Shown: positions 4,341 through 33,225 of the stretch, piece by piece
Position numbering within the stretch: position 1 is the first letter of the stretch
Layout: each line of letters opens with the position of its first letter
Assembly: GCA_029261815.1 (NCBI GenBank)
Contig: JAJDAQ010000069.1
Coordinates: 12,340-76,339, forward strand
Direction: 5' to 3'
Length of the DNA: 64,000 nt
DNA from: Deltaproteobacteria bacterium
GTDB lineage: Bacteria; Myxococcota_A; UBA9160; UBA6930
Translations under genes and position numbers: made by a program
Notes under the pieces: generated by a model
Told to the model about the DNA's origin: nothing
The model's input: only the letters and a program-made list of their open reading frames with translations
Databases searched by the model: none

Positions 4341-4865
4341 CTAGAGGAGAGCGCCTTGCGCGGGGTGTCGGTGCTCCATGGCGAGCAGCTTCTCCTTCAT
4401 CGGGAGGCCGCCTCCATAGCCACCCAGCTTGCCGCCGGCGGCTACGACGCGGTGGCACGGAATCACGAGCGAGAGCGGATTCGCTCCGTTCGCGGTTCCG
4501 ACCGCGCGCACGGCCTTCGGCTGCCCGATGGCGTGTGCCACGTCGGTATAGGTTCTCGTCTCGCCATAGCCGATCTGCTGAAGCGCCTCGTAGACCTTGT
4601 GCTGGAACGACGTGGCCCGAAGATCCAGCGTGAGATCGAACGCCTCGCGCTTGCCTTCGAGGAACTCGGTGATCTGCAAGATCGCCGCACGATTGGGCTC
4701 GTAGCCGTCGCGCACGTCGTCGCCAGTCGCGTGGGTATGCAACCAACCGGTGAGCCCGCGACCTTGCGCTCGCGGCAGCTGCACATACGCCAGTCCGCTC
4801 TCCGTCGAAGCGAGTTTCATCGCACCGAAGGCGGTATCAAAGCTGGCGAGAAAGACGGACCCCAT
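4341..4865 (-). CDS. ogt: methylated-DNA--protein-cysteine methyltransferase
   Basis: Active-site motif IPCHRVV plus LGGYGGGLPMKEKLL at the C-terminus. 174 aa. Confidence 0.9.
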   Translation of the reverse strand: MGSVFLASFDTAFGAMKLASTESGLAYVQLPRAQGRGLTGWLHTHATGDDVRDGYEPNRAAILQITEFLEGKREAFDLTLDLRATSFQHKVYEALQQIGYGETRTYTDVAHAIGQPKAVRAVGTANGANPLSLVIPCHRVVAAGGKLGGYGGGLPMKEKLLAMEHRHPAQGALL

Positions 4866-4947: not shown

Positions 4948-6450
4948 CTAGTCTGCCGTCTCCAAGCGCTTGATCATCTTCTGGAGAGACTGCCGGGGGA
5001 TCCCGAGGCGTTCCGCCGCCCGTGTCTTCGAGCCCGTTTCTTCGAGTGCGGCGTGGATCATGGCTCGCTTCAGCTGGTCCACCGCCAGGTTGAGGTCCGT
5101 CTCATCGGGTAGCCCCGAGTCGCCTCCGCGTCCGCTGACACGCGGCGCCCGTGTCGATGTCGCGCCGCGGACCTCCTCGGAGAACATCTCGGGATGCAGC
5201 CGCACCTCGTCGCCCGCCAGCGCCACCGCCCGCTGGATCTCGTTCTCGAGTTCACGCACGTTGCCGCTCCAGACGTGGGCGGCCAACCGATCCATCGCCG
5301 AGTTGCTGAAGCCCTCGATCTTTCGGCCCATCTGTTCGCACGCCGAATCGAGGAAGTGGTGGGCCAACGCCGGAATATCCTCGACGCGATCGCGCAGGGG
5401 CGGCAGCTCGATCTCGACGACGCGGAGTCGATAGTAGAGGTCCTCTCGGAAGCGGCCCTCCTCGACGGCTTTCTTCAGATCGCGGTTGGTTGCCGCGATG
5501 ATGCGGACATCGACGCGACGCGTGTCCGACGAGCCCAGCGGCCGGATTTCGCCGTCCTGCAGCACGCGCAGCAGCCGAACCTGCATCCCGGGCTCTGTTT
5601 CTCCGACCTCGTCGAGGAAGATGCTTCCGTGATGGGCGACTTCAAACAGGCCCTTCTTGTCGGCGTGAGCGCCCGTGAACGAACCGCGCTTGTGCCCGAA
5701 GAGCTCGCTTTCGAGCAGGGTATCCGGGAGCGCGCCACAGTTCTGGGCCACGAACCGCTCTTCGCGCCGCGAGCCCGCGTAGTGCACGGCCCGCGCCACG
5801 AGATCCTTGCCCGTACCCGTCTCGCCGGTGATGAGCACCGTGGCATCGGTCTGGGCGACCTTCTCCATCACGTCGAAGACCCGCTGCATCGCGGGACTCG
5901 CACCGATGATGTTCTCGAACGAGTACTGCCCCTGCACTTCGCGACGTAGGAAGAGATTCTCGGCCCGGAGCTTCTCGTTCGCGACAGCGAGTGCGGACGC
6001 CAATTGGGTGTTCTCCGACGCCAGGCCATAGGCCTCCAGCGCGCGCTTCACGTCGAGCCGCAGCTCGTCGGGCTCCCACGGCTTCGAGATGTAGCGGTAG
6101 ATACGGCCGTCGTTGATGGCGCGAACGACTTCGTCGATGTTCGCCTGGCCCGTCAGCATCATGCGTACGGCTGCGGGGCGGACTTCAACCGCGCGCTTCA
6201 GGAATTCGACGCCGCTCATCTCGGGCATGATGTTGTCGACGATGACGAGCGCGAACTCCTCACGTTCGAGGAGTCCCAGCGCCGCATTCGGGTCGGTCGA
6301 CGTCACAACGTGATAATCGTCCTCCAGCGCGAACGCGAGGGACTCGACCACGCCCTCTTCGTCATCCACGACGAGGATCGAATAGGGCTTCGCTCCCGCC
6401 TCCCGGCGTGCGCCCTCGATGGCGTTCGAAAGGTCGGAACTCAAGCGCAT
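4948..6450 (-). CDS. sigma-54-dependent response regulator (NtrC family enhancer-binding protein)
   Basis: Receiver domain (ILVVDDEEG ... VIVDNIMPEMSG). AAA+ sigma-54 interaction domain (GETGTGKDLVARAVH, ESELFGHKRGSFTGA). C-terminal Fis-type HTH (AAERLGIPRQSLQKMIKRL). Start chosen at ATG 6450 (MRLSSDL); the longer ORF to 6609 is Arg/Pro-rich and unlikely to be coding. Confidence 0.92.
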   Translation of the reverse strand: MRLSSDLSNAIEGARREAGAKPYSILVVDDEEGVVESLAFALEDDYHVVTSTDPNAALGLLEREEFALVIVDNIMPEMSGVEFLKRAVEVRPAAVRMMLTGQANIDEVVRAINDGRIYRYISKPWEPDELRLDVKRALEAYGLASENTQLASALAVANEKLRAENLFLRREVQGQYSFENIIGASPAMQRVFDVMEKVAQTDATVLITGETGTGKDLVARAVHYAGSRREERFVAQNCGALPDTLLESELFGHKRGSFTGAHADKKGLFEVAHHGSIFLDEVGETEPGMQVRLLRVLQDGEIRPLGSSDTRRVDVRIIAATNRDLKKAVEEGRFREDLYYRLRVVEIELPPLRDRVEDIPALAHHFLDSACEQMGRKIEGFSNSAMDRLAAHVWSGNVRELENEIQRAVALAGDEVRLHPEMFSEEVRGATSTRAPRVSGRGGDSGLPDETDLNLAVDQLKRAMIHAALEETGSKTRAAERLGIPRQSLQKMIKRLETAD

Positions 6451-6639
6451 CGGCGGAGCCAGGGCACCGCGCACCTCCGAGCCGGACGGTACCCGGCGTG
6501 CGACGCGACGGCGAGGCCGCCCCGTCACACAGGGTGGGACCCGGCCTCCGGGAAGGGGACGTGGCGCAGCCGCACCACACACCACCCTGGCCCCCGGAGG
6601 CCGGTTCACCTTGCCGGCAGCTTCCCGCCGGAGCCCGCG

Positions 6640-7008
6640 TTAGCGGCGAGCCGTCTTCTTGCGAGCCGTCCGACCGGTGGTCTTGCGACGCGCGGTCTTC
6701 TTGGCCGGCTTCTTCGCGACCTTGCGCGTCGTACGCCGCGCCGTGGTCTTCTTCTTGGCCGTCTTGCGGGCGGGCTTGCGTCCGCGGCGGACCATCTTGG
6801 CCTTCGAGACGTCTCCGTCCTTGTCGATGAAATAGAGGAACCCGTCCTCCTTCTCGACCCCGACCTTGGCCACCGTTTGACGTGTGCCCTTCTTGGCCTT
6901 TCCCCCGCCGCCTGCGCGACGCACCCGGGCGACGTTGCCCCGGCGATCAAGGAAATACAGCCAGTCCTTTTCCCGCTTGACTCCAACCCTCGCGACCTTT
7001 GTGGCCAT
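6640..7008 (-). CDS. small basic protein: duplicated N-terminal module plus histone-H1-like K/R/T/A-rich C-terminal tail (candidate nucleoid-associated protein)
   Basis: 122 aa, with AGGAGG 6 nt upstream of ATG 7008. Internal repeat VARVGVKREKDWLYFLDRRGNVARV / VAKVGVEKEDGFLYFIDKDGDVSKA. Tail RRGRKPARKTAKKKTTARRTTRKVAKKPAKKTARRKTTGRTARKKTARR. Confidence 0.75.
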   Translation of the reverse strand: MATKVARVGVKREKDWLYFLDRRGNVARVRRAGGGGKAKKGTRQTVAKVGVEKEDGFLYFIDKDGDVSKAKMVRRGRKPARKTAKKKTTARRTTRKVAKKPAKKTARRKTTGRTARKKTARR

Positions 7009-7322
7009 GGTTGCCCTCCTTGCGTGGTTGACTTGCGATCACCCGCCGGCGCCGAAGCCGGCAGTCTCGATGGAGGATGTCGCGCCCAGGCCAAGGGGAT
7101 GGCTGCCGGGGTACACCAAAACATGATCGCCCTCGATCCGACGGTGTCAATAGTGTTTTCAGGGGGTTACCGACGGAGTTGCGAGTCTGGGCATGCTCCT
7201 GGAGCGGGCTCCTCCGTCGGAGTCCCCCTGCCGGCCCTGCATCAAGCCATCAAGGGGCTGCGCCGATGAGCCAGGGCGGCCGTCGCCCCCGGGGCCGCGT
7301 GCTAGCTTCCGGAGTTCCCTTG

Positions 7323-9383
7323 ATGAATCGGTCCCTTCGCCAACTCGCCGCGATAGCGCTCGTCTGGATTGCCACCCTCGGTGGTCTCGCCTGCTCCGAT
7401 GCGCCTTCTCGCGACGGCGTCACCGACGCCGCGGCCGAGGCCTCTGCGCCGGCCCTCCGGGCCGTCCTCATCAGCATCGACACCCTCCGCAACGACCGGA
7501 TCGGAACGATGTATAAAGGGCGTCCGGTCACCCCGAACCTCGATGCCCTGGCCGCCCGCGGCGCGCGCTTCCACACGACGATCGCACCGGTCCCGATCAC
7601 CCTGCCCTCCCACACGACGATGCTGACCGGACTCCAACCGCCGCGGCACGGCGTGCGCGCAAATTCGACCTTTGCACTCGACGACCACATCCCGACACTG
7701 GCGACGGAAGCGCAGTCGGCCGGCATCGCCACGGGCGCATTCGTCGGCGCCGTGGTTCTCAGCCGCCACTATGGTCTCGCGCGCGGCTTCGACCTCTACG
7801 ATGACCGGATGGGCGAACGACGCGCCCTCGGCAAGACGGGCTATCCCGAACGACAGGCCGATGCCGTCGTTGACGCCGCCCTCCAGTGGATCCGTCCCAC
7901 GCAGCCGAATCGCTTCTTCGTGTGGATGCACATGTACGATCCTCACTTCGATCACCACCCGCCGCGCTATTTCGCCGACCTGATGGCCGATGACCTGTAC
8001 GCGGCCGAGATCCACTTCAGCGACCAGCAGGTCGGGCGCTTCGTCGAAGAGGTCGAAGCCCTCTACCCGGACGGCCGCACGTTGTTCGTCATCACCAGTG
8101 ACCACGGCGAGAGTTTCGGCGAACACGGCGACCCCACGCATAGCTACAGCGTCTACGACGCGACGCAACGGGTGCCCCTGATCCTGGTGGGTCCCGGGAT
8201 CGAAGCGGGCAAGGAAGTCCACGAGGTCGTGCGTTTGTCGGACATTGCCCCGACGGTGTTGAACGAGATGGGTTTGGCGGCATTGCCCGAAACCGACGGT
8301 CTCGACCTGCTTGCCCTGCTGGACGACGAACCGGACGAACCGCGGACCGCCTGGGTCGAGACCGTGGCCACACGCCTCGAGCACGGATGGAGCCCGATCT
8401 ACGGAGTCCGCACCGAGCGCTTCAAGTACCTTCGCGCGCCGCGCCCCGAGCTCTATGCCGTCCAGGAAGATCCCGACGAACTCGACGACCTCGCCTCGAC
8501 ACTGCCCGAAGTCGCGAAGGAACTCGACGCCCAGGTCGGTGCGGTCCTGGCCACGGCGGTTCCGCTGCGCATGACGCTCGATCCAGACCCCGCGGAACGC
8601 GCTCAACTCGAAGCGTTGGGTTACGTCATTCCCGACTCCGGTATCGACCCCGAAGCCGCCGTGATCGTGGGCGGCATCGACCCGAAGGACACTGTGCACG
8701 TGATCGGCGCCATGTCCGAGGCCCTGCGTCTCTCACAGGCCGACAAGCCGGAAGAAGCGATCGAATTGCTCCTGTCCCTCGAAACAGAGAGCGGACATAC
8801 GGACGCTCGGCTCGGCCGACTCCTGCGCGAGGTCGGAAGGCTCGAGGAGTCGCTGGTCTACGCGCGGCGCGCGGTCGCAGCGACCCCGGGCTGGTCGGAT
8901 ACGCATTATCAGTTGGCCATGACCCTCCGAGACCTCGGGCGCCTCGACGAAGCGCGCTTTGCTTTCGCCCAGGCCGCGGAATTGGATCCGCAGAATCCCG
9001 CCGCCCACGTTGCGCTCGGCGCACTCGACATGGGCAGCGGAGACCTGGAAGCCGCCGCGGTGCATCTCGAACGCGCGGTCGCTGGCCATGCGCACATGAA
9101 CGAGGCGTATTGGCGGCTGGCGGCGGTTCGCCTGGCACAGGGACGGACGGCGGATGCCGACGCCCTCCTCGATGGATTGTCGCCCCAGAAGTGGCGCTGG
9201 AAGCCCCTGGTAGTCCAAAACCTGGCCGTTGCCCAGGTCATGGCCGGCGAACACAAGGCCGCGCTCAAGCGGGTCCGACTGTCCTTGCGACAGCACCCGG
9301 ATGCCGAGGCTCTTCGTGCGATCAAGACGCAGCTCGAAGCCGAAATCGCACGGATCGAGGCTGAAGCGGCGAACGCCGAATAA
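7323..9383 (+). CDS. alkaline-phosphatase-superfamily (sulfatase/NPP-like) lipoprotein fused to C-terminal TPR repeats
   Basis: Start ATG 7323 gives the lipobox signal LAAIALVWIATLGGLAC. SIDTLRNDRIG and TSDHGESFGEHG are sulfatase-fold motifs. The nucleophile region reads TLPSHTTMLTGLQPPRHG. The C-terminal about 250 aa have TPR-like periodicity. Confidence 0.8.
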   Translation: MNRSLRQLAAIALVWIATLGGLACSDAPSRDGVTDAAAEASAPALRAVLISIDTLRNDRIGTMYKGRPVTPNLDALAARGARFHTTIAPVPITLPSHTTMLTGLQPPRHGVRANSTFALDDHIPTLATEAQSAGIATGAFVGAVVLSRHYGLARGFDLYDDRMGERRALGKTGYPERQADAVVDAALQWIRPTQPNRFFVWMHMYDPHFDHHPPRYFADLMADDLYAAEIHFSDQQVGRFVEEVEALYPDGRTLFVITSDHGESFGEHGDPTHSYSVYDATQRVPLILVGPGIEAGKEVHEVVRLSDIAPTVLNEMGLAALPETDGLDLLALLDDEPDEPRTAWVETVATRLEHGWSPIYGVRTERFKYLRAPRPELYAVQEDPDELDDLASTLPEVAKELDAQVGAVLATAVPLRMTLDPDPAERAQLEALGYVIPDSGIDPEAAVIVGGIDPKDTVHVIGAMSEALRLSQADKPEEAIELLLSLETESGHTDARLGRLLREVGRLEESLVYARRAVAATPGWSDTHYQLAMTLRDLGRLDEARFAFAQAAELDPQNPAAHVALGALDMGSGDLEAAAVHLERAVAGHAHMNEAYWRLAAVRLAQGRTADADALLDGLSPQKWRWKPLVVQNLAVAQVMAGEHKAALKRVRLSLRQHPDAEALRAIKTQLEAEIARIEAEAANAE

Positions 9384-29806: not shown

Positions 29807-29823
29807 CTGGCACGGACGATGCA
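29807..29823 (+). promoter_or_regulatory. candidate sigma-54 (-24/-12) promoter
   Basis: CTGGCACGGACGATGCA differs from the consensus YTGGCACGrNNNTTGCW at one position, with correct GG-N10-GC spacing. It lies about 59 nt upstream of the 29882 start codon. Confidence 0.45.
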
Positions 29824-29881: not shown

Positions 29882-30082
29882 ATGGCCCAGACTGCAACCA
29901 CCGCGCTGTACGAACTGCCCTACGAAGAGGCCGTGCAGACGACGCTCCTCGAACTGGTCGAGACCGTCGGCGAGCTGACGGACGACGACCGCGAGGTCGT
30001 CGCGACCGTGATCCAACTGCTGCGCTCCGGTCGCGTGCGACTCACCGGCAATTTCCGCGGGCAGAAACTCGCCGAGGCGTAG
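29882..30082 (+). CDS. small acidic hypothetical protein (66 aa) immediately upstream of top6B
   Basis: ATG 29882 lies 7 nt after GGAGGGGGG. MAQTATTALYELPYEEAVQTTLLELVETVGELTDDDREVVATVIQLLRSGRVRLTGNFRGQKLAEA. GC3-biased codons. Confidence 0.55.
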   Translation: MAQTATTALYELPYEEAVQTTLLELVETVGELTDDDREVVATVIQLLRSGRVRLTGNFRGQKLAEA

Positions 30083-30130: not shown

Positions 30131-31966
30131 ATGAGCAAGCAGGGGAGCTTCACCTTCGAGGGCGAAGCCGGAGGCCAGGCGATGTCGGCCGCACCCGCCA
30201 AGGGCGGTGGCGCGGCGCGTGGCAAGAGCCGTGGCAGCGCGAAGAAAGCGCCGGCCAAGAAGACGACGACGACGGCGGCGAAGTCGGCGCACAAAGCTGC
30301 GAAGTCGGCGCACGAAGCTGCGAAGTCGGCGCGCAAAGCCGCGAAGTCCACACGCAAAGCGCCGAAGAGCGGCGCCGCGACTCGCAAGCCGAAGGAACGC
30401 ACCCGCTCCGATGCCACCCAGATGGCGACGAAGCAGCGGGACATTTCGGTCTCCGAGTTCTTCGCGAAGAACCGTCACCTCCTCGGGTTCGACAATCCGG
30501 CCAAGGCCCTCCTCACGACGGTGAAGGAAGGCGTCGACAACTCGCTCGACGCCTGTGAAGAAGCCGGCATCCTGCCCGACATTCGCGTCGAGATCCATCA
30601 GCAGGACGAGACGCGCTTCCGTGTCGTGATCGAAGACAACGGCCCCGGCATCGTGAAGGCCCAGGTGCCGAAGATCTTCGGTCGGCTGCTGTACGGCTCG
30701 AAATTCCACCGGTTGCGGCAGAGCCGGGGACAGCAGGGCATCGGGATCAGCGCAGCCGGCATGTATGGCCTGCTGACCACGGGCAAGCCGGTGAAGATCA
30801 TCACGCGAATCGGCAAGAAGAAGCCGGCGCAGCTATTCGAACTGGTGATCGATACCAAGACGAACGAGCCCAAGGTCACGCGCGAAGAGGTGGTCGACGA
30901 CTGGGCTCCGGAACACGGAACCCGCGTCGAGATCGAGATGGAGGGCGGTTACCGCGGCGGCCAGCACTCGGTCGATGCCTACGTACGGCAGATCTCGCTC
31001 GCGAATCCGCACGCGCGACTCGTCTACCTGCCTCCGAACCCGACCAAGACGAACGGCGCGATCGAATTCCCGCGCGTCACCGACGAACTCCCGCCGGAGA
31101 CCGCCGAGATCAAGCCGCACCCCTATGGCGTGGAGCTGGGCGTCCTGATGCAGATGTTCCGCGACACCCGCGCACGAAACGTCAAAGGCTGCTTGCAGTC
31201 CGACTTCGTACGCGTGTCCGCCGCCGTGGCCGAAGACATCTGCAAACGCGCCGGCGTCAAGCCCGGAAAGAAGGGTCCCGACGTTAGTCGGGACGAAGCC
31301 GAGAGCATCCACAAGGCGATCCTCAACACGAAGCTGATGGCACCGCCGACAGACTGCATCGCTCCCATTGGCGAGGATCTCCTGCTCGCGGCCCTGAAGG
31401 CCGAGGTAAGAGCCGACTTCTATGCGTCGGTGACACGTCGGCCCACCGTGTATCGCGGCAACCCGTTCATGATCGAAGCTGCGATCGCCTACGGGGGAGA
31501 TCTCTCGGGCGACGACTCAGCCCTCGTCTACCGCTTCGCCAACCGCGTGCCGCTGCAATACCAGCAGGGCGCGTGTGCGGTCACGAAGGCAGTCACGGGG
31601 ACGGACTGGAAGTCGTACCAGATGATGCAACCCCGTGGCGCCTTGCCTGTGGGCCCGATGATCATCATGGTGCACATCGCTTCGGTGTGGGTGCCCTTCA
31701 CTTCCGAGAGCAAGGAAGCGGTTGCCCACTATCCGGAGATCATCAAGGAGATGCGGCTCGCTCTACAGGAATGTGGACGTCGCGTCGCGACCCACATCCG
31801 AAAGCAGAAGCGCGAAGCCGACGAGGCCAAGAAGCGCGCCTACATCGAGAAGTACATCCCCCAGGTCGCCGTTGGCCTGCAGGAGATCCTGGGCTTCTCG
31901 GAGAAAGAACGCGACAAGGTCGTCACGAACCTCACCGAGGTTCTGGAAAAGAGCAGGAAGCTGTAA
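30131..31966 (+). CDS. top6B: DNA topoisomerase VI subunit B with about 97-aa Lys/Ala-rich N-terminal extension
   Basis: GHKL Bergerat-fold motifs: N-box [14 protein letters not shown]1 [10 protein letters not shown]2 [15 protein letters not shown]. The canonical N-terminus [18 protein letters not shown] begins around residue 105. An alternative start ATG 30422 would remove the tail. Confidence 0.93.
30278..30361 (+). repeat. 21-bp tandem repeat x4 inside the top6B 5' region (heptad AKSAHKA / AKSAHEA / AKSARKA / AKSTRKA)
   Basis: gcgaagtcggcgcacaaagct / gcgaagtcggcgcacgaagct / gcgaagtcggcgcgcaaagcc / gcgaagtccacacgcaaagcg, read directly from the sequence. Confidence 0.9.
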
Positions 31967-33225
31967 TGCCGGCACGCAAGAAGACGACGAAGGCGGCGCC
32001 CCGCAAAGCGGCCAAGAAGACGTCGAAGAAGACCGCGCGCAAGAAGACGACTTCAGCGCGAAAGCGCGCAACCAACGACGCCGAAGCCGAAAGGCGCGCG
32101 GGCGAAGTCGCCAAGAACAACGAGCGAATGAACGCTGTCACGGTCAAGGCGATCGAAAAAGCCGCGACCGGGGTGCACACGCGAATTCTCAAGAAGGGGA
32201 AGCCCGACCTCTCGTTCCCGATCCGCTCGCTCAAGAACGTGAGTTATTCGGACAAGCGTGGCTACTTCGAGATCGGAAAACAGAAGAAGACGCGAACCCT
32301 GACGGTCAACACCGTGAAGAACTTCGCACAAACGCTGCGGATGATGGGACTTTCGAAGGAGCTGGTGGAGAGCAACGACTTCGCCACCAAGCGAGACGCC
32401 TACTACCAGAGCAAGAATTGGGACGATGCGCGCTTCAGCGAACAGAGCGAGAGCGACGCTGTCATGGACGATATCGAAGCCATGTTCTCGGTCGACAGCG
32501 TGTCTCGCGAGCAGCTCCGCTTCATTCCGGACGAGGCCTCGAACGGCTCGGTGGCCGGCGAGCTGACGGTGCTCGACCCCGACCGCGACACCGGCGAGAT
32601 CATCCGCATCGACTGCACCGGCTTCGGCTCGGGCGCGTACGCGATCCCGTCCTCCGTCGAACAGCTCTCGTTCGAAACCGACGCTTCCTTCATCCTGTGC
32701 GTCGAAACAGGCGGCATCTTCCAGCGACTCCAGAGCCACAAGTTCTGGCAGAGTTCGAACTGCATCCTGATCTCGATGGGCGGCGTGCCTTCCCGCGCGT
32801 GCCGGCGCTTCGTTCGAAAGCTGTCGGATGAGGCCAAGATTCCGGTCTACGCCTTCGTCGATTGCGACCCCTACGGCATCTCGAACATCTACCGAACGCT
32901 CAAGGTCGGCTCGGGCAACGCGGCGCACCTTTCAAGATTCTTCTGTGTGCCCCAGGCGCAGTACCTGGGTGTCACGCCACAGGACATCGTGGACTATGAA
33001 CTGCCGACTCATCCATTGCAGGATGTCGACATCAAGCGTGCCAAGGATGCCCTGAAGAACGACCCGTTCTTCCGGGCACACAAGCCCTGGCAGAAGGCCC
33101 TGAATGATCTCTTGAAGATGGGCGTGCGTGCCGAACAGCAGGCACTGGCGAAGTGGGGCCTCAACTACGTGATCGAGGAATACCTGCCCGCCAAACTCGA
33201 CAACCCGGCCCAGTTCCTCCCGTAG
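31966..33225 (+). CDS. top6A: DNA topoisomerase VI subunit A (Spo11 family) with about 35-aa basic N-terminal tail
   Basis: The start ATG overlaps the top6B stop (TAATG). Catalytic-Tyr region ATKRDAYYQ. Toprim Glu [13 protein letters not shown]. Dx[14 protein letters not shown]. Tail [35 protein letters not shown]. Confidence 0.93.

Follow-up and report, generated by a model that had tools for sequence, protein, structure and literature searches.

The HupB/Hlp proteins of mycobacteria and HupS of Streptomyces are HU-type proteins with tails resembling those of histone H1, and Sul7d/Sso7d and Cren7 are basic, all-β proteins of ~7–8 kDa built as a single SH3-like barrel. The latter two, small chromatin proteins of Crenarchaeota, are named in PMC11841832, and H1-like tails are described as DNA-binding modules in other bacteria, namely in PhaF and AlgP, with AlgP also located on polyphosphate granules (PMC11894788). 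Here we analyze a gene for a 122-amino acid (aa) protein at positions 6640..7008, minus strand, of a 64,000-nucleotide (nt) stretch of contig JAJDAQ010000069.1; this whole stretch is called the window, and coordinates refer to it unless another contig is named. Small basic architectural proteins that carry an H1-like tail are a known kind; for the core family and its predicted fold no Pfam or NCBIfam model reached cut-off and no solved relative was found. As judged from its sequence the protein probably binds nucleic acid, and the reading that we favor, with a rough probability of 0.45, is that of a nucleoid-associated protein, i.e. a small stand-alone polycationic DNA binder.

A Duplicated β Core with a Basic Tail

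The gene was read from the list of open reading frames (ORFs) and the sequence, with its stop codon at 6640–6642. The 122-aa ORF is as quoted in the original prediction, an earlier reading of this DNA, and the strong Shine-Dalgarno (SD) sequence noted there, AAGGAGG, lies at 7021–7015 on the same strand, 6 nt before the ATG. The protein consists of a conserved core of residues 1–76 (6781..7008, minus strand), delimited by alignments A1 and A2 together with AF2 models, and a K/R/T/A tail of residues 77–122 (6643..6780, minus strand). Within the core, repeat 1 (residues 5–30, VARVGVKREKDWLYFLDRRGNVARVR; 6919..6996, minus strand) and repeat 2 (residues 46–71, VAKVGVEKEDGFLYFIDKDGDVSKAK; 6796..6873, minus strand) are identical at 12/26 positions with 22/26 positives when one half is compared with the other (BLASTP E 1e-9, single comparison), which bears out the proposed internal duplication, and the duplication is kept in 40/40 aligned relatives. 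The core has a net charge of +12 and a pI of 10.6. The tail is composed of K13, R11, T10, A8, P2, G1, and V1, with no aspartate or glutamate, and is predicted to be disordered (pLDDT ~50). Tandem Repeats Finder detected no tandem repeat in the tail DNA, indicating that the tail is compositional and not a recent DNA-level tandem array. The gene is present as a single copy in its own genome (profile match E 3.9e-39), and its earlier description as coding for a small, very basic, probably nucleic acid-binding protein with a disordered H1-like tail stands.

The family to which the core belongs is named nowhere; we label it the LYF-repeat small basic protein family and define it by alignments A1 and A2. 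The core consensus is MATKVAKVGVKKExGWLYFLDKKGNVSRAKMARGxKK...KPQxVAKVGVKRExGFLYFIDKxGDVSxAKMxRRGRKK, with invariant columns G9, L17, Y18, G24, G56, L58, Y59, F60, D62, and G65, of which L58, Y59, F60, D62, and G65 mark repeat 2. The repeat unit of ~35 aa reads G-(W/F/Y)-L-Y-(F/Y)-x-D-(K/R)-x-G-(N/D)-(V/I), and closes with a basic strand whose last residue is M. The window protein shows this pattern and also has the general build of the family, being stand-alone with a core of ~75 aa that is strongly net positive.

A word-indexed search with the window protein returned 284 homologues (E≤0.01), the best 120 of which are mostly 73–125 aa long and 45–77% identical, without a precomputed Pfam domain, and those with a name are called "hypothetical protein" apart from one stray proteasome label. 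When 1.84 billion representatives were searched exhaustively with the profile, 1267 clusters (at 50% identity) matched at E≤1e-3, of which 504 reached E≤1e-10, and a scan of one genome per species gave at least 592 confirmed family loci. The best 80 of these loci, in records that are nearly all metagenome-assembled, carry the labels Myxococcota/"Deltaproteobacteria", Omnitrophota, Fidelibacterota/Marinimicrobia, Elusimicrobiota/Endomicrobia, Bdellovibrionota, and Woesearchaeota/Nanoarchaeia, with single records from Nitrospirota and Babeliaceae. Four of the 80 failed the motif filter, leaving 76 loci proteins for analysis. Taken by itself, the folded part of these carries a net charge between +5 and +19, the medians being +13 for the charge and 10.3 for the pI. 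The Myxococcota window protein is 55–65% identical to members from Woesearchaeota, Omnitrophota, or Elusimicrobiota and, to judge by these alignments, so tiny a protein is under strong purifying selection. The gene is near-universal in some taxonomic families of the window's class (9/9, 8/9, 6/6, and 10/10 genomes in four of them). Viral contigs yielded only 5 family relatives among 55 pattern matches, on which ground the reading as a phage family was rejected, and PADLOC gave no match for the three members submitted. Longer forms are a minority, one in the word-indexed search and some among the top 150 representatives of the exhaustive profile search.

AF2 with an alignment predicted two three-stranded β units with strands at residues 3–6, 16–20, 26–30, 44–47, 57–61, and 67–71. 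The pLDDT is ~90 in the strands, the linker between the repeats is floppy, and the only helix predicted, at residues 87–91, falls within the low-confidence tail. A model of the core alone has a mean pLDDT of 84 and a pTM of 0.67. Prediction of a homodimer from two core copies with alignment A2 scored 0.00 in two runs, with the verdict "no answer".

Comparison with known families left the core without a recognized relative. The Pfam scan of the window ORF had no match at E≤10, the NCBIfam scan gave noise only with no model at cut-off, the ESM Atlas held only unnamed clusters for the family, and neither profile nor structure searches matched the N-terminal module to a well characterized unrelated family, which leaves this part of the original prediction intact. 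The recurrent weak matches were to tandem WW domains and YWTD blades only. Profile searches of PDB sequences likewise gave weak matches, to the YWTD blades of LRP6 (E 0.002–0.013) and to a choline-binding repeat (E 0.5–1.4). The Pfam family DotY (PF23131) was considered, because 18/25 members matched it, and rejected; these matches were below the gathering cut-off of 27 bits (best E 0.0011), covered profile positions 140–205, and scored ~17 bits in the three best of the five members printed. The window core itself did not match DotY, and no DotY chain appeared in the PDB profile search at E≤10. The sub-threshold scores, together with a middle domain described for DotY as helical with flanking two-stranded sheets (PMC9300119), led us to drop this assignment.

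With linker histones the protein shares the long lysine-rich disordered C-terminal tail (46 aa, 24 K+R, no acidic residue), although the tail of eukaryotic H1 is poorer in R and T. The winged helix of H1/H5 is not in evidence, as there is no Pfam match at E≤10 and the predicted core is all-β. Pfam HC2 (PF07382) did not match the 122-aa ORF, the same scan detecting HC2 in a protein on contig C39 (E 7e-11), and Bac_DNA_binding (PF00216), the HU/IHF family, did not match the ORF either. The five-stranded SH3-like barrel of the Sul7d/Cren7 type is absent from the VIA and Foldseek matches shown, an absence that does not exclude this fold. Literature searches turned up no description of the family, which, as there is no name to look for, is weak evidence for its absence from print. 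The conserved core is, on the evidence of these scans, an unnamed, unannotated, and uncharacterized family.

Tails in Relatives and in the Genome

The C-terminal extension beyond the core ranges from 0 to 90 residues among the 76 loci. Most members outside Myxococcota have 0–8 tail residues (K, KK, RKKKKK, and similar), and those of the Myxococcota clade have 19–90 residues of R/K/T/A/P with 0 or 1 acidic residue. Long K-rich tails also occur in three Woesearchaeota/Nanoarchaeia members (28, 44, and 68 residues), and further long tails are found in one member from Endomicrobia (54 residues) and one from Omnitrophota (26 residues). In a maximum likelihood tree of the core, which is poorly resolved with 76 columns, the window protein falls within a supported clade of 26 rows (96/81) with mostly Myxococcota labels, which also holds one Nitrospirota, one Pseudomonadota, and two Spirochaetota records and three without a phylum. 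The long tails outside this clade are scattered in the tree, indicating that tails were gained several times. The archaeal members, of the Woesearchaeota type, interleave with Elusimicrobiota, Omnitrophota, and a Babeliaceae sequence, which, within the low resolution of 76 columns, suggests transfers between the domains.

The original prediction treated such tails as a special mark of three genes, those of the 122-aa protein and of the two topoisomerase VI (Topo VI) subunits, Top6A and Top6B. The genome assembly (4.89 Mb, 181 contigs, 66% G+C, 89% complete) was scanned for tails in 31,372 six-frame ORFs of at least 60 aa, a tail being called where a 30-aa segment held ≥7 K, ≥10 K+R, and ≥26 residues out of K/R/T/A/P/S/G. 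Fifteen ORFs passed, of which three seem to be spurious frames (C65, C147, and C179 277-aa ORFs), leaving ~12 tailed proteins that include metabolic and proteolytic enzymes, a result that does not support a mark confined to three genes. Besides the 122-aa protein, Top6A, and Top6B, these are a RecQ-type helicase and a pyruvate phosphate dikinase, both with N-terminal tails; a ClpP-like SDH-type protease with C-terminal APKKKK repeats (Pfam score 27.3, below the cut-off of 31.3); the HC2-matching protein on C39, which has a C-terminal CxxC motif; and five proteins of 80–346 aa that match no Pfam model, including one made up of KKATR repeats for nearly its whole length. The tail-bearing loci elsewhere in the genome are C170:42947–45748, C140:44647–47190, C102:25584–26609, C39:1–501, C179:51730–52161, C165:2389–2628, C32:25510–25947, C72:74969–76006, and C55:15816–16343. 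Several of the small tailed proteins are nearly all basic repeats. As read from this census, the K/R/T/A tail is a lineage-wide habit, appended to many unrelated proteins, and neither a common tail nor a common 14-mer within it should be taken for a functional link.

Gene Neighborhood and Fusions

Neighbors were scanned with a crude longest-ORF caller within 400–450 nt only, covering 56 downstream neighbors and 59/62 upstream neighbors; in G+C-rich loci the caller missed the activator described below, which was recovered by tblastn with the window's neighbors. In the window a sigma-54 activator (4948..6609, minus strand, with the true start probably near 6450) lies directly downstream on the same strand, and Pfam confirmed the response-regulator receiver, sigma-54 AAA+, and Fis-type helix-turn-helix domains with which it had originally been described. 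The third gene in this conserved order, recognized from its tblastn homologues, is of the O6-methylguanine-DNA methyltransferase (MGMT) type (4341..4865, minus strand). By tblastn, 17 loci of the Myxococcota clade have an activator 55–86% identical to that of the window as the next downstream gene on the same strand, after gaps of 89–315 nt. MGMT homologues lie downstream in 15 loci (tblastn with the window protein), right after the activator in 7 of the 17 activator loci and further on in 5; in three loci MGMT follows the family gene directly and the activator is absent. One of these three MGMT homologues has the Pfam domains DNA_binding_1 and Methyltransf_1N. Six further clade loci end too soon for the downstream order to be read. 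The upstream genes of the clade differ, with glutathione synthetase in six loci, a sulfatase-TPR protein in the window and one other locus, and a penicillin-binding protein, indicating that the downstream linkage is better kept than the upstream one.

Across all loci no neighbor is universal. In the Omnitrophota-type order the family gene stands between aspartate dehydrogenase and UvrA, and UvrA is immediately downstream in eight loci. In Fidelibacterota-type loci the upstream gene codes for a response regulator, acetate kinase, or dephospho-CoA kinase and the downstream gene for an Rce1-like protein of ~1100 aa; UvrA is the immediate upstream neighbor in one of these loci. An aldehyde dehydrogenase is the downstream ORF in all five Bdellovibrionota-type loci that have a nearby one. 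In Elusimicrobiota a radical-SAM gene lies upstream, with a giant β-helix protein downstream in 2/3 loci. Woesearchaeota neighbors are varied (DUF1385, GTPases, Nre, and others), with Nre adjacent in one locus.

Longer proteins carry the LYF-type repeat in ~4–10 copies (six were noted as multi-copy or fused), or joined to HIT (one protein), DoxX, OmpA, or GAF with zinc ribbons and a prokaryotic RING. For the C-terminal region of one fusion the nearest Atlas clusters carry NucS_C/PD-(D/E)xK at a score of 0.90, which we take as a lead only, and one repeat protein of 886 aa seems to be membrane-anchored. Some of these fusions may be gene-calling artefacts, such as P0131, which reads through into the neighboring activator.

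Expression Signals

A sigma-70-type promoter, TTGACA-16 nt-GATCAT, precedes the gene at 7123..7150 on the minus strand (one found versus 0.0 in shuffles), giving a leader of ~110 nt. In the window and 20 related Myxococcota-clade loci the best site is an exact TTGACA with a 16- or 17-nt spacer, 92–181 nt before the ATG, and this -35 element is kept in a lineage of 66% G+C. Fidelibacterota-type loci have TTGACA-17-TAACAT in seven cases, 71–85 nt upstream, and TAAGAT in an eighth. No sigma-54 site was seen before the family gene. Inspection by eye of the 20 nt before the ATG, without a tally, found a GGAG/GAGG-type SD core in most relatives and weaker purine runs in some.

In the leaders of 20 Myxococcota-clade loci (~60–150 nt) little is conserved beyond the promoter, the SD, and a TCCTCC motif complementary to the SD; the motif is exact in 19/20 of the aligned leaders and lies at 7072..7077 (minus strand) in the window. 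The predicted pairing probability of the SD averages 0.86 versus 0.73 when the upstream part is shuffled, a modest excess, and pairing between SD and TCCTCC is a plausible candidate for an anti-SD element of translational control. RNAalifold found no consensus pairs in the 20 leaders, Rfam had no match at E≤1 within 6300–7400, and folding of the window leader is not unusual (z = 0.27). The intergenic region after the gene is structured (z = -2.86), without a T-tract terminator.

Relation to Topoisomerase VI

The genes for Top6B (30131–31966, plus strand; Pfam Topo-VIb_trans, 4.5e-60) and Top6A (31966–33225, plus strand; TOP6A-Spo11_Toprim, 1.2e-59) lie 23–25 kb from the family gene. Their identities and basic N termini agree with the original prediction, the extension being K/A/T-rich in Top6B (30131..30415, plus strand) and K/T/A/R-rich in Top6A (31966..32070, plus strand); both are features for comparison and neither is linked to the 122-aa protein as part of one system. 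The top6B stop and the top6A start overlap as TAATG at 31964–31968. The sigma-54-type promoter proposed to precede these genes exists as a sequence match, TGGCACGGACGATGC at 29808–29822 with one mismatch, but such matches are not enriched, with 61 in the window at ≤2 mismatches versus 52.5 expected in shuffles. Between this TGGCAC-N5-ATGC site and top6B there is an acidic ORF of 66 aa (29883–30082, plus strand).

To assess co-occurrence, a sample of 301 genomes from the phylum was searched first with the family profile and next with Pfam TP6A_N. The family gene is present in 46 and Top6A in 59, with both in 29, the family gene only in 17, Top6A only in 30, and neither in 225. Within the window's class Top6A is found in 29/38 carriers of the family gene versus 12/20 non-carriers; in the nine in-class carriers in which it was not detected, genome completeness is 88–97%. 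One taxonomic family, f5, has Top6A in 11/18 genomes and the family gene in none. Outside the phylum, TP6A_N matched one of five carriers, the Bdellovibrionota genome; the other four are from Omnitrophota, Fidelibacterota, and Elusimicrobiota, with one labeled Planctomycetia. No Topo VI gene lies in the 6-kb flanks of the 17 related loci that keep the downstream order. The co-occurrence that had been expected in relatives is therefore loose, and the association between the two genes, as seen in these genomes, is apparently phylogenetic.

The Topo VI N termini were read in ten genomes. In f5, among genomes in which the family gene was not detected, two have long K/A-rich tails on both subunits, a third has a Top6A tail of ~35 aa, and a fourth has a short tail only. 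Among carriers of the family gene, one from the window's own taxonomic family has an N-terminal stretch of 15 aa on Top6A and no K-rich tail on Top6B, another has short or moderate stretches, and the tail of a third could not be read; two genomes of a further family (f11) and the Bdellovibrionota genome have no Topo VI tails. Tails without the family gene and short or missing tails in its carriers indicate that the Topo VI tails vary independently of it. The similar tails of Top6A and Top6B are parallel products of the lineage-wide habit, with no evidence of a shared module.

The 14-mer AAGAAGACCGCGCG occurs exactly twice in the window, as the original prediction had reported, at 6689–6702 (minus strand) and 32026–32039 (plus strand, within the Top6A extension), encoding KKTAR in frame in both genes, and two or more matches were seen in 0/100 shuffles. 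The weight placed on it is not sustained; there is a third genomic copy, and many pairs among the 12 tail genes share strings of 14–22 nt. Measured as the longest exact DNA match between coding strands, the shared string is 15 nt for the family gene and top6B, 15 nt for the family gene and C165, 18 nt for top6B and C39, 20 nt for RecQ and C179, and 22 nt for C39 and C102. The 14-mer thus follows from the K/T/A/R composition and codon bias and indicates no special relationship.

Two further chromatin-type genes were found in the genome, a single PF00216 (HU/IHF) gene (C48:24128–24397) and one for a histone-fold protein (CBFD_NFYB_HMF, 35 bits, in a 73-aa frame at C26:29559–29747). The combination of a histone fold, a single HU/IHF gene, Topo VI, and an HC2-like protein is an unusual chromatin-gene set for a bacterium.

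Proposed Function and Alternatives

If the protein is a DNA binder associated with the nucleoid, its duplicated 76-residue core would serve as the module for specific binding, with conserved lysines, arginines, and aromatic side chains on display, and the disordered K/R/T/A tail would be a lineage-specific add-on that raises non-specific affinity for polyanions, in the manner of the H1-like tails on mycobacterial HupB and Pseudomonas AlgP. What we rate as the best indirect evidence is the repeated gain of purely cationic tails, which suggests that the partner of the core is a polyanion. DNA is favored by this gain together with the DNA-repair neighbors in separate lineages and the nuclease and HIT fusion leads; by their annotation, UvrA, MGMT, Nre, the HIT fusion, and the nuclease-like lead are DNA-directed partners found in separate lineages. 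The conservation of so small a protein, the polycationic core of all 76 loci proteins, and the expression signals (TTGACA promoters and SD cores) also count toward this reading, under which the protein is probably highly expressed; its target would be DNA rather than RNA. Several observations weigh against this assignment. The protein has no homology to a protein of known function, no Pfam or NCBIfam model reached cut-off for the family members scanned, which gives binding no homology-based support, Foldseek found no match in the PDB at E≤1e-3 for either model, and VIA, over 48,161 representative chains, gave best Z values of 3.2 and 2.7, mostly for pairs of propeller blades. Among the neighbors, genes of unrelated metabolic or membrane function predominate (aspartate dehydrogenase, aldehyde dehydrogenase, Rce1-like, acetate kinase), and the neighbor evidence is thin and clustered by phylogeny. 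The fusions to DoxX, OmpA, and GAF/zinc ribbon/RING, along with a multi-repeat protein with acidic linkers, would be expected of a general binding module no less than of a DNA binder, and in the model exposed aromatics on a basic β sheet would suit RNA equally. Replacement of HU by this protein was considered and rejected, as PF00216 genes are present in this genome and in 5/5 other carriers.

A role at RNA or the ribosome, be it as an RNA chaperone or as a factor of the ribosome-associated or hibernation type, with the core binding RNA and the tail adding affinity, seems to us unlikely. Conservation from bacteria to archaea is very high for a protein of 80 aa, at a level typical for proteins that work with universal RNA machines, and each repeat is a strand-turn-strand rich in aromatic and basic residues. 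The strong promoter and SD and the long leader with its SD-complementary TCCTCC suggest translational feedback, of a kind seen in ribosomal-protein and cold-shock genes, and some archaeal neighbors are translation-related (a 50S-binding GTPase type, prolyl-tRNA synthetase, a small methyltransferase). The patchy distribution, with 46/301 genomes of its own phylum, is unlike that of a core ribosomal component, however, the leader has neither an Rfam element nor an RNAalifold consensus structure, and the nucleic acid-themed neighbors tested are mostly DNA-repair genes. Further down in our estimate, and plainly unlikely, is a general ligand- or protein-binding module of the WW or propeller-blade type, acting as an adaptor or as a binder of a polyanion such as polyphosphate, with the basic tail tethering the protein to the nucleoid or to polyphosphate granules. 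The occurrence of the repeat in 4–10 copies or fused to DoxX, OmpA with a membrane segment, GAF/zinc ribbons/RING, and HIT would suit such a module, as would the weak likeness to tandem WW domains (Foldseek E ~0.75), LRP6 YWTD blades, and choline-binding repeats and the location of AlgP-type H1-like proteins on polyphosphate granules as described in PMC11894788; yet the folded part of the stand-alone form is uniformly and strongly basic, every structural likeness is below significance, and fusions of the P0131 kind may be artefacts.

Two narrower proposals concern the Myxococcota clade and the window itself. An architectural cofactor of the adjacent sigma-54 activator, which would bend DNA as IHF does and be expressed together with the activator and MGMT, would not conflict with DNA binding and would account for an order of family gene, activator, and MGMT that is kept in 17 loci while the upstream genes vary, in a genome with a single HU/IHF-family gene. 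We consider it improbable, as the activator is missing in three loci where MGMT follows directly, no scanned downstream neighbor outside the clade is a sigma-54 activator, the upstream neighbor in three Fidelibacterota loci is a receiver-domain protein of 198 aa, the gene has a sigma-70-type promoter of its own and no sigma-54 site seen before it, and gene order can be inherited among relatives without functional coupling. The proposal of a single chromatin-like module, made up of the protein, Top6A, and Top6B and joined by shared tails, drew on the three K/T/A/R-rich tails and the 14-nt string, and both gene sets are common in the same Myxococcota class, with Top6A in 29/46 carriers of the phylum. 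It is now unsupported and, in our estimate, highly improbable, two of the three findings that had been named in advance as contradicting it, tails on many other proteins and a lack of co-occurrence, having been made. Tails and shared strings of 14–22 nt are spread over many genes of the genome, 17 carriers have no detected Top6A and 30 Top6A genomes no detected family gene (with 29/38 versus 12/20 in the class), and Top6A is undetected in 4/5 carriers from other phyla. Long Top6A tails are present in 3/4 sampled genomes in which the protein was not detected (in two of them on Top6B as well) and are short or missing in 2/3 sampled in-class carriers, the third being unreadable. Nor are the genes close, at the distance given above, and the flanks of the 17 related loci lack Topo VI.

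A wider proposal, which we put forward only tentatively and hold to be rather doubtful, is that the family represents an unrecognized class of chromatin proteins with a new duplicated β-meander DNA-binding fold, occurring in DPANN archaea and in the bacterial phyla Myxococcota, Omnitrophota, Fidelibacterota, Elusimicrobiota, and Bdellovibrionota, and shared partly by transfer between domains, with H1-like tails acquired repeatedly and anti-SD control in Myxococcota. Should DNA binding prove true, the core would add a new fold to the few small architectural proteins of prokaryotic chromatin. These phyla have almost no cultured models, and bacterial histones are described in PMC11390915 as recently reported in phyla where the family occurs. 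The main interest lies in a large conserved orphan family common to DPANN archaea and a number of bacterial phyla; a name for it and experiments on a single member would annotate many hypothetical proteins, the 1267 clusters at 50% identity being otherwise unannotated.

Comparison with Known Systems

Tandem WW domains and YWTD (LDL-receptor class B) blades share with the core a three-stranded antiparallel meander, an aromatic-rich middle strand, and a D-x-x-G turn, all matches being below significance (Foldseek E≥0.4, VIA Z≤3.2, and profile E 0.002–0.013 with no domain passing alone); they differ in being protein or ligand binders from unrelated contexts. Sul7d/Sso7d and Cren7 resemble the family in their size of ~7–8 kDa, their basic charge, and their β-only structure, whereas their single SH3-like barrel has no internal duplication and no sequence similarity to the family. 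The tails of chlamydial Hc1/Hc2 and of Pseudomonas AlgP and PhaF are alike in composition and in the presumed non-specific binding of DNA (and polyphosphate), as treated in PMC11894788. In contrast to these proteins, two thirds of the 122-aa protein is a conserved folded domain, which in most members of the family is nearly tail-less. HupB/Hlp and HupS share the overall plan of a small basic folded core with a disordered K/A/T/R-rich C-terminal tail that is lineage-specific and variable in length, encoded by a stand-alone gene. Their core, however, has the α/β HU fold (PF00216), whereas the 122-aa protein has no PF00216 match and is predicted to combine a tail of the same type with an all-β core.

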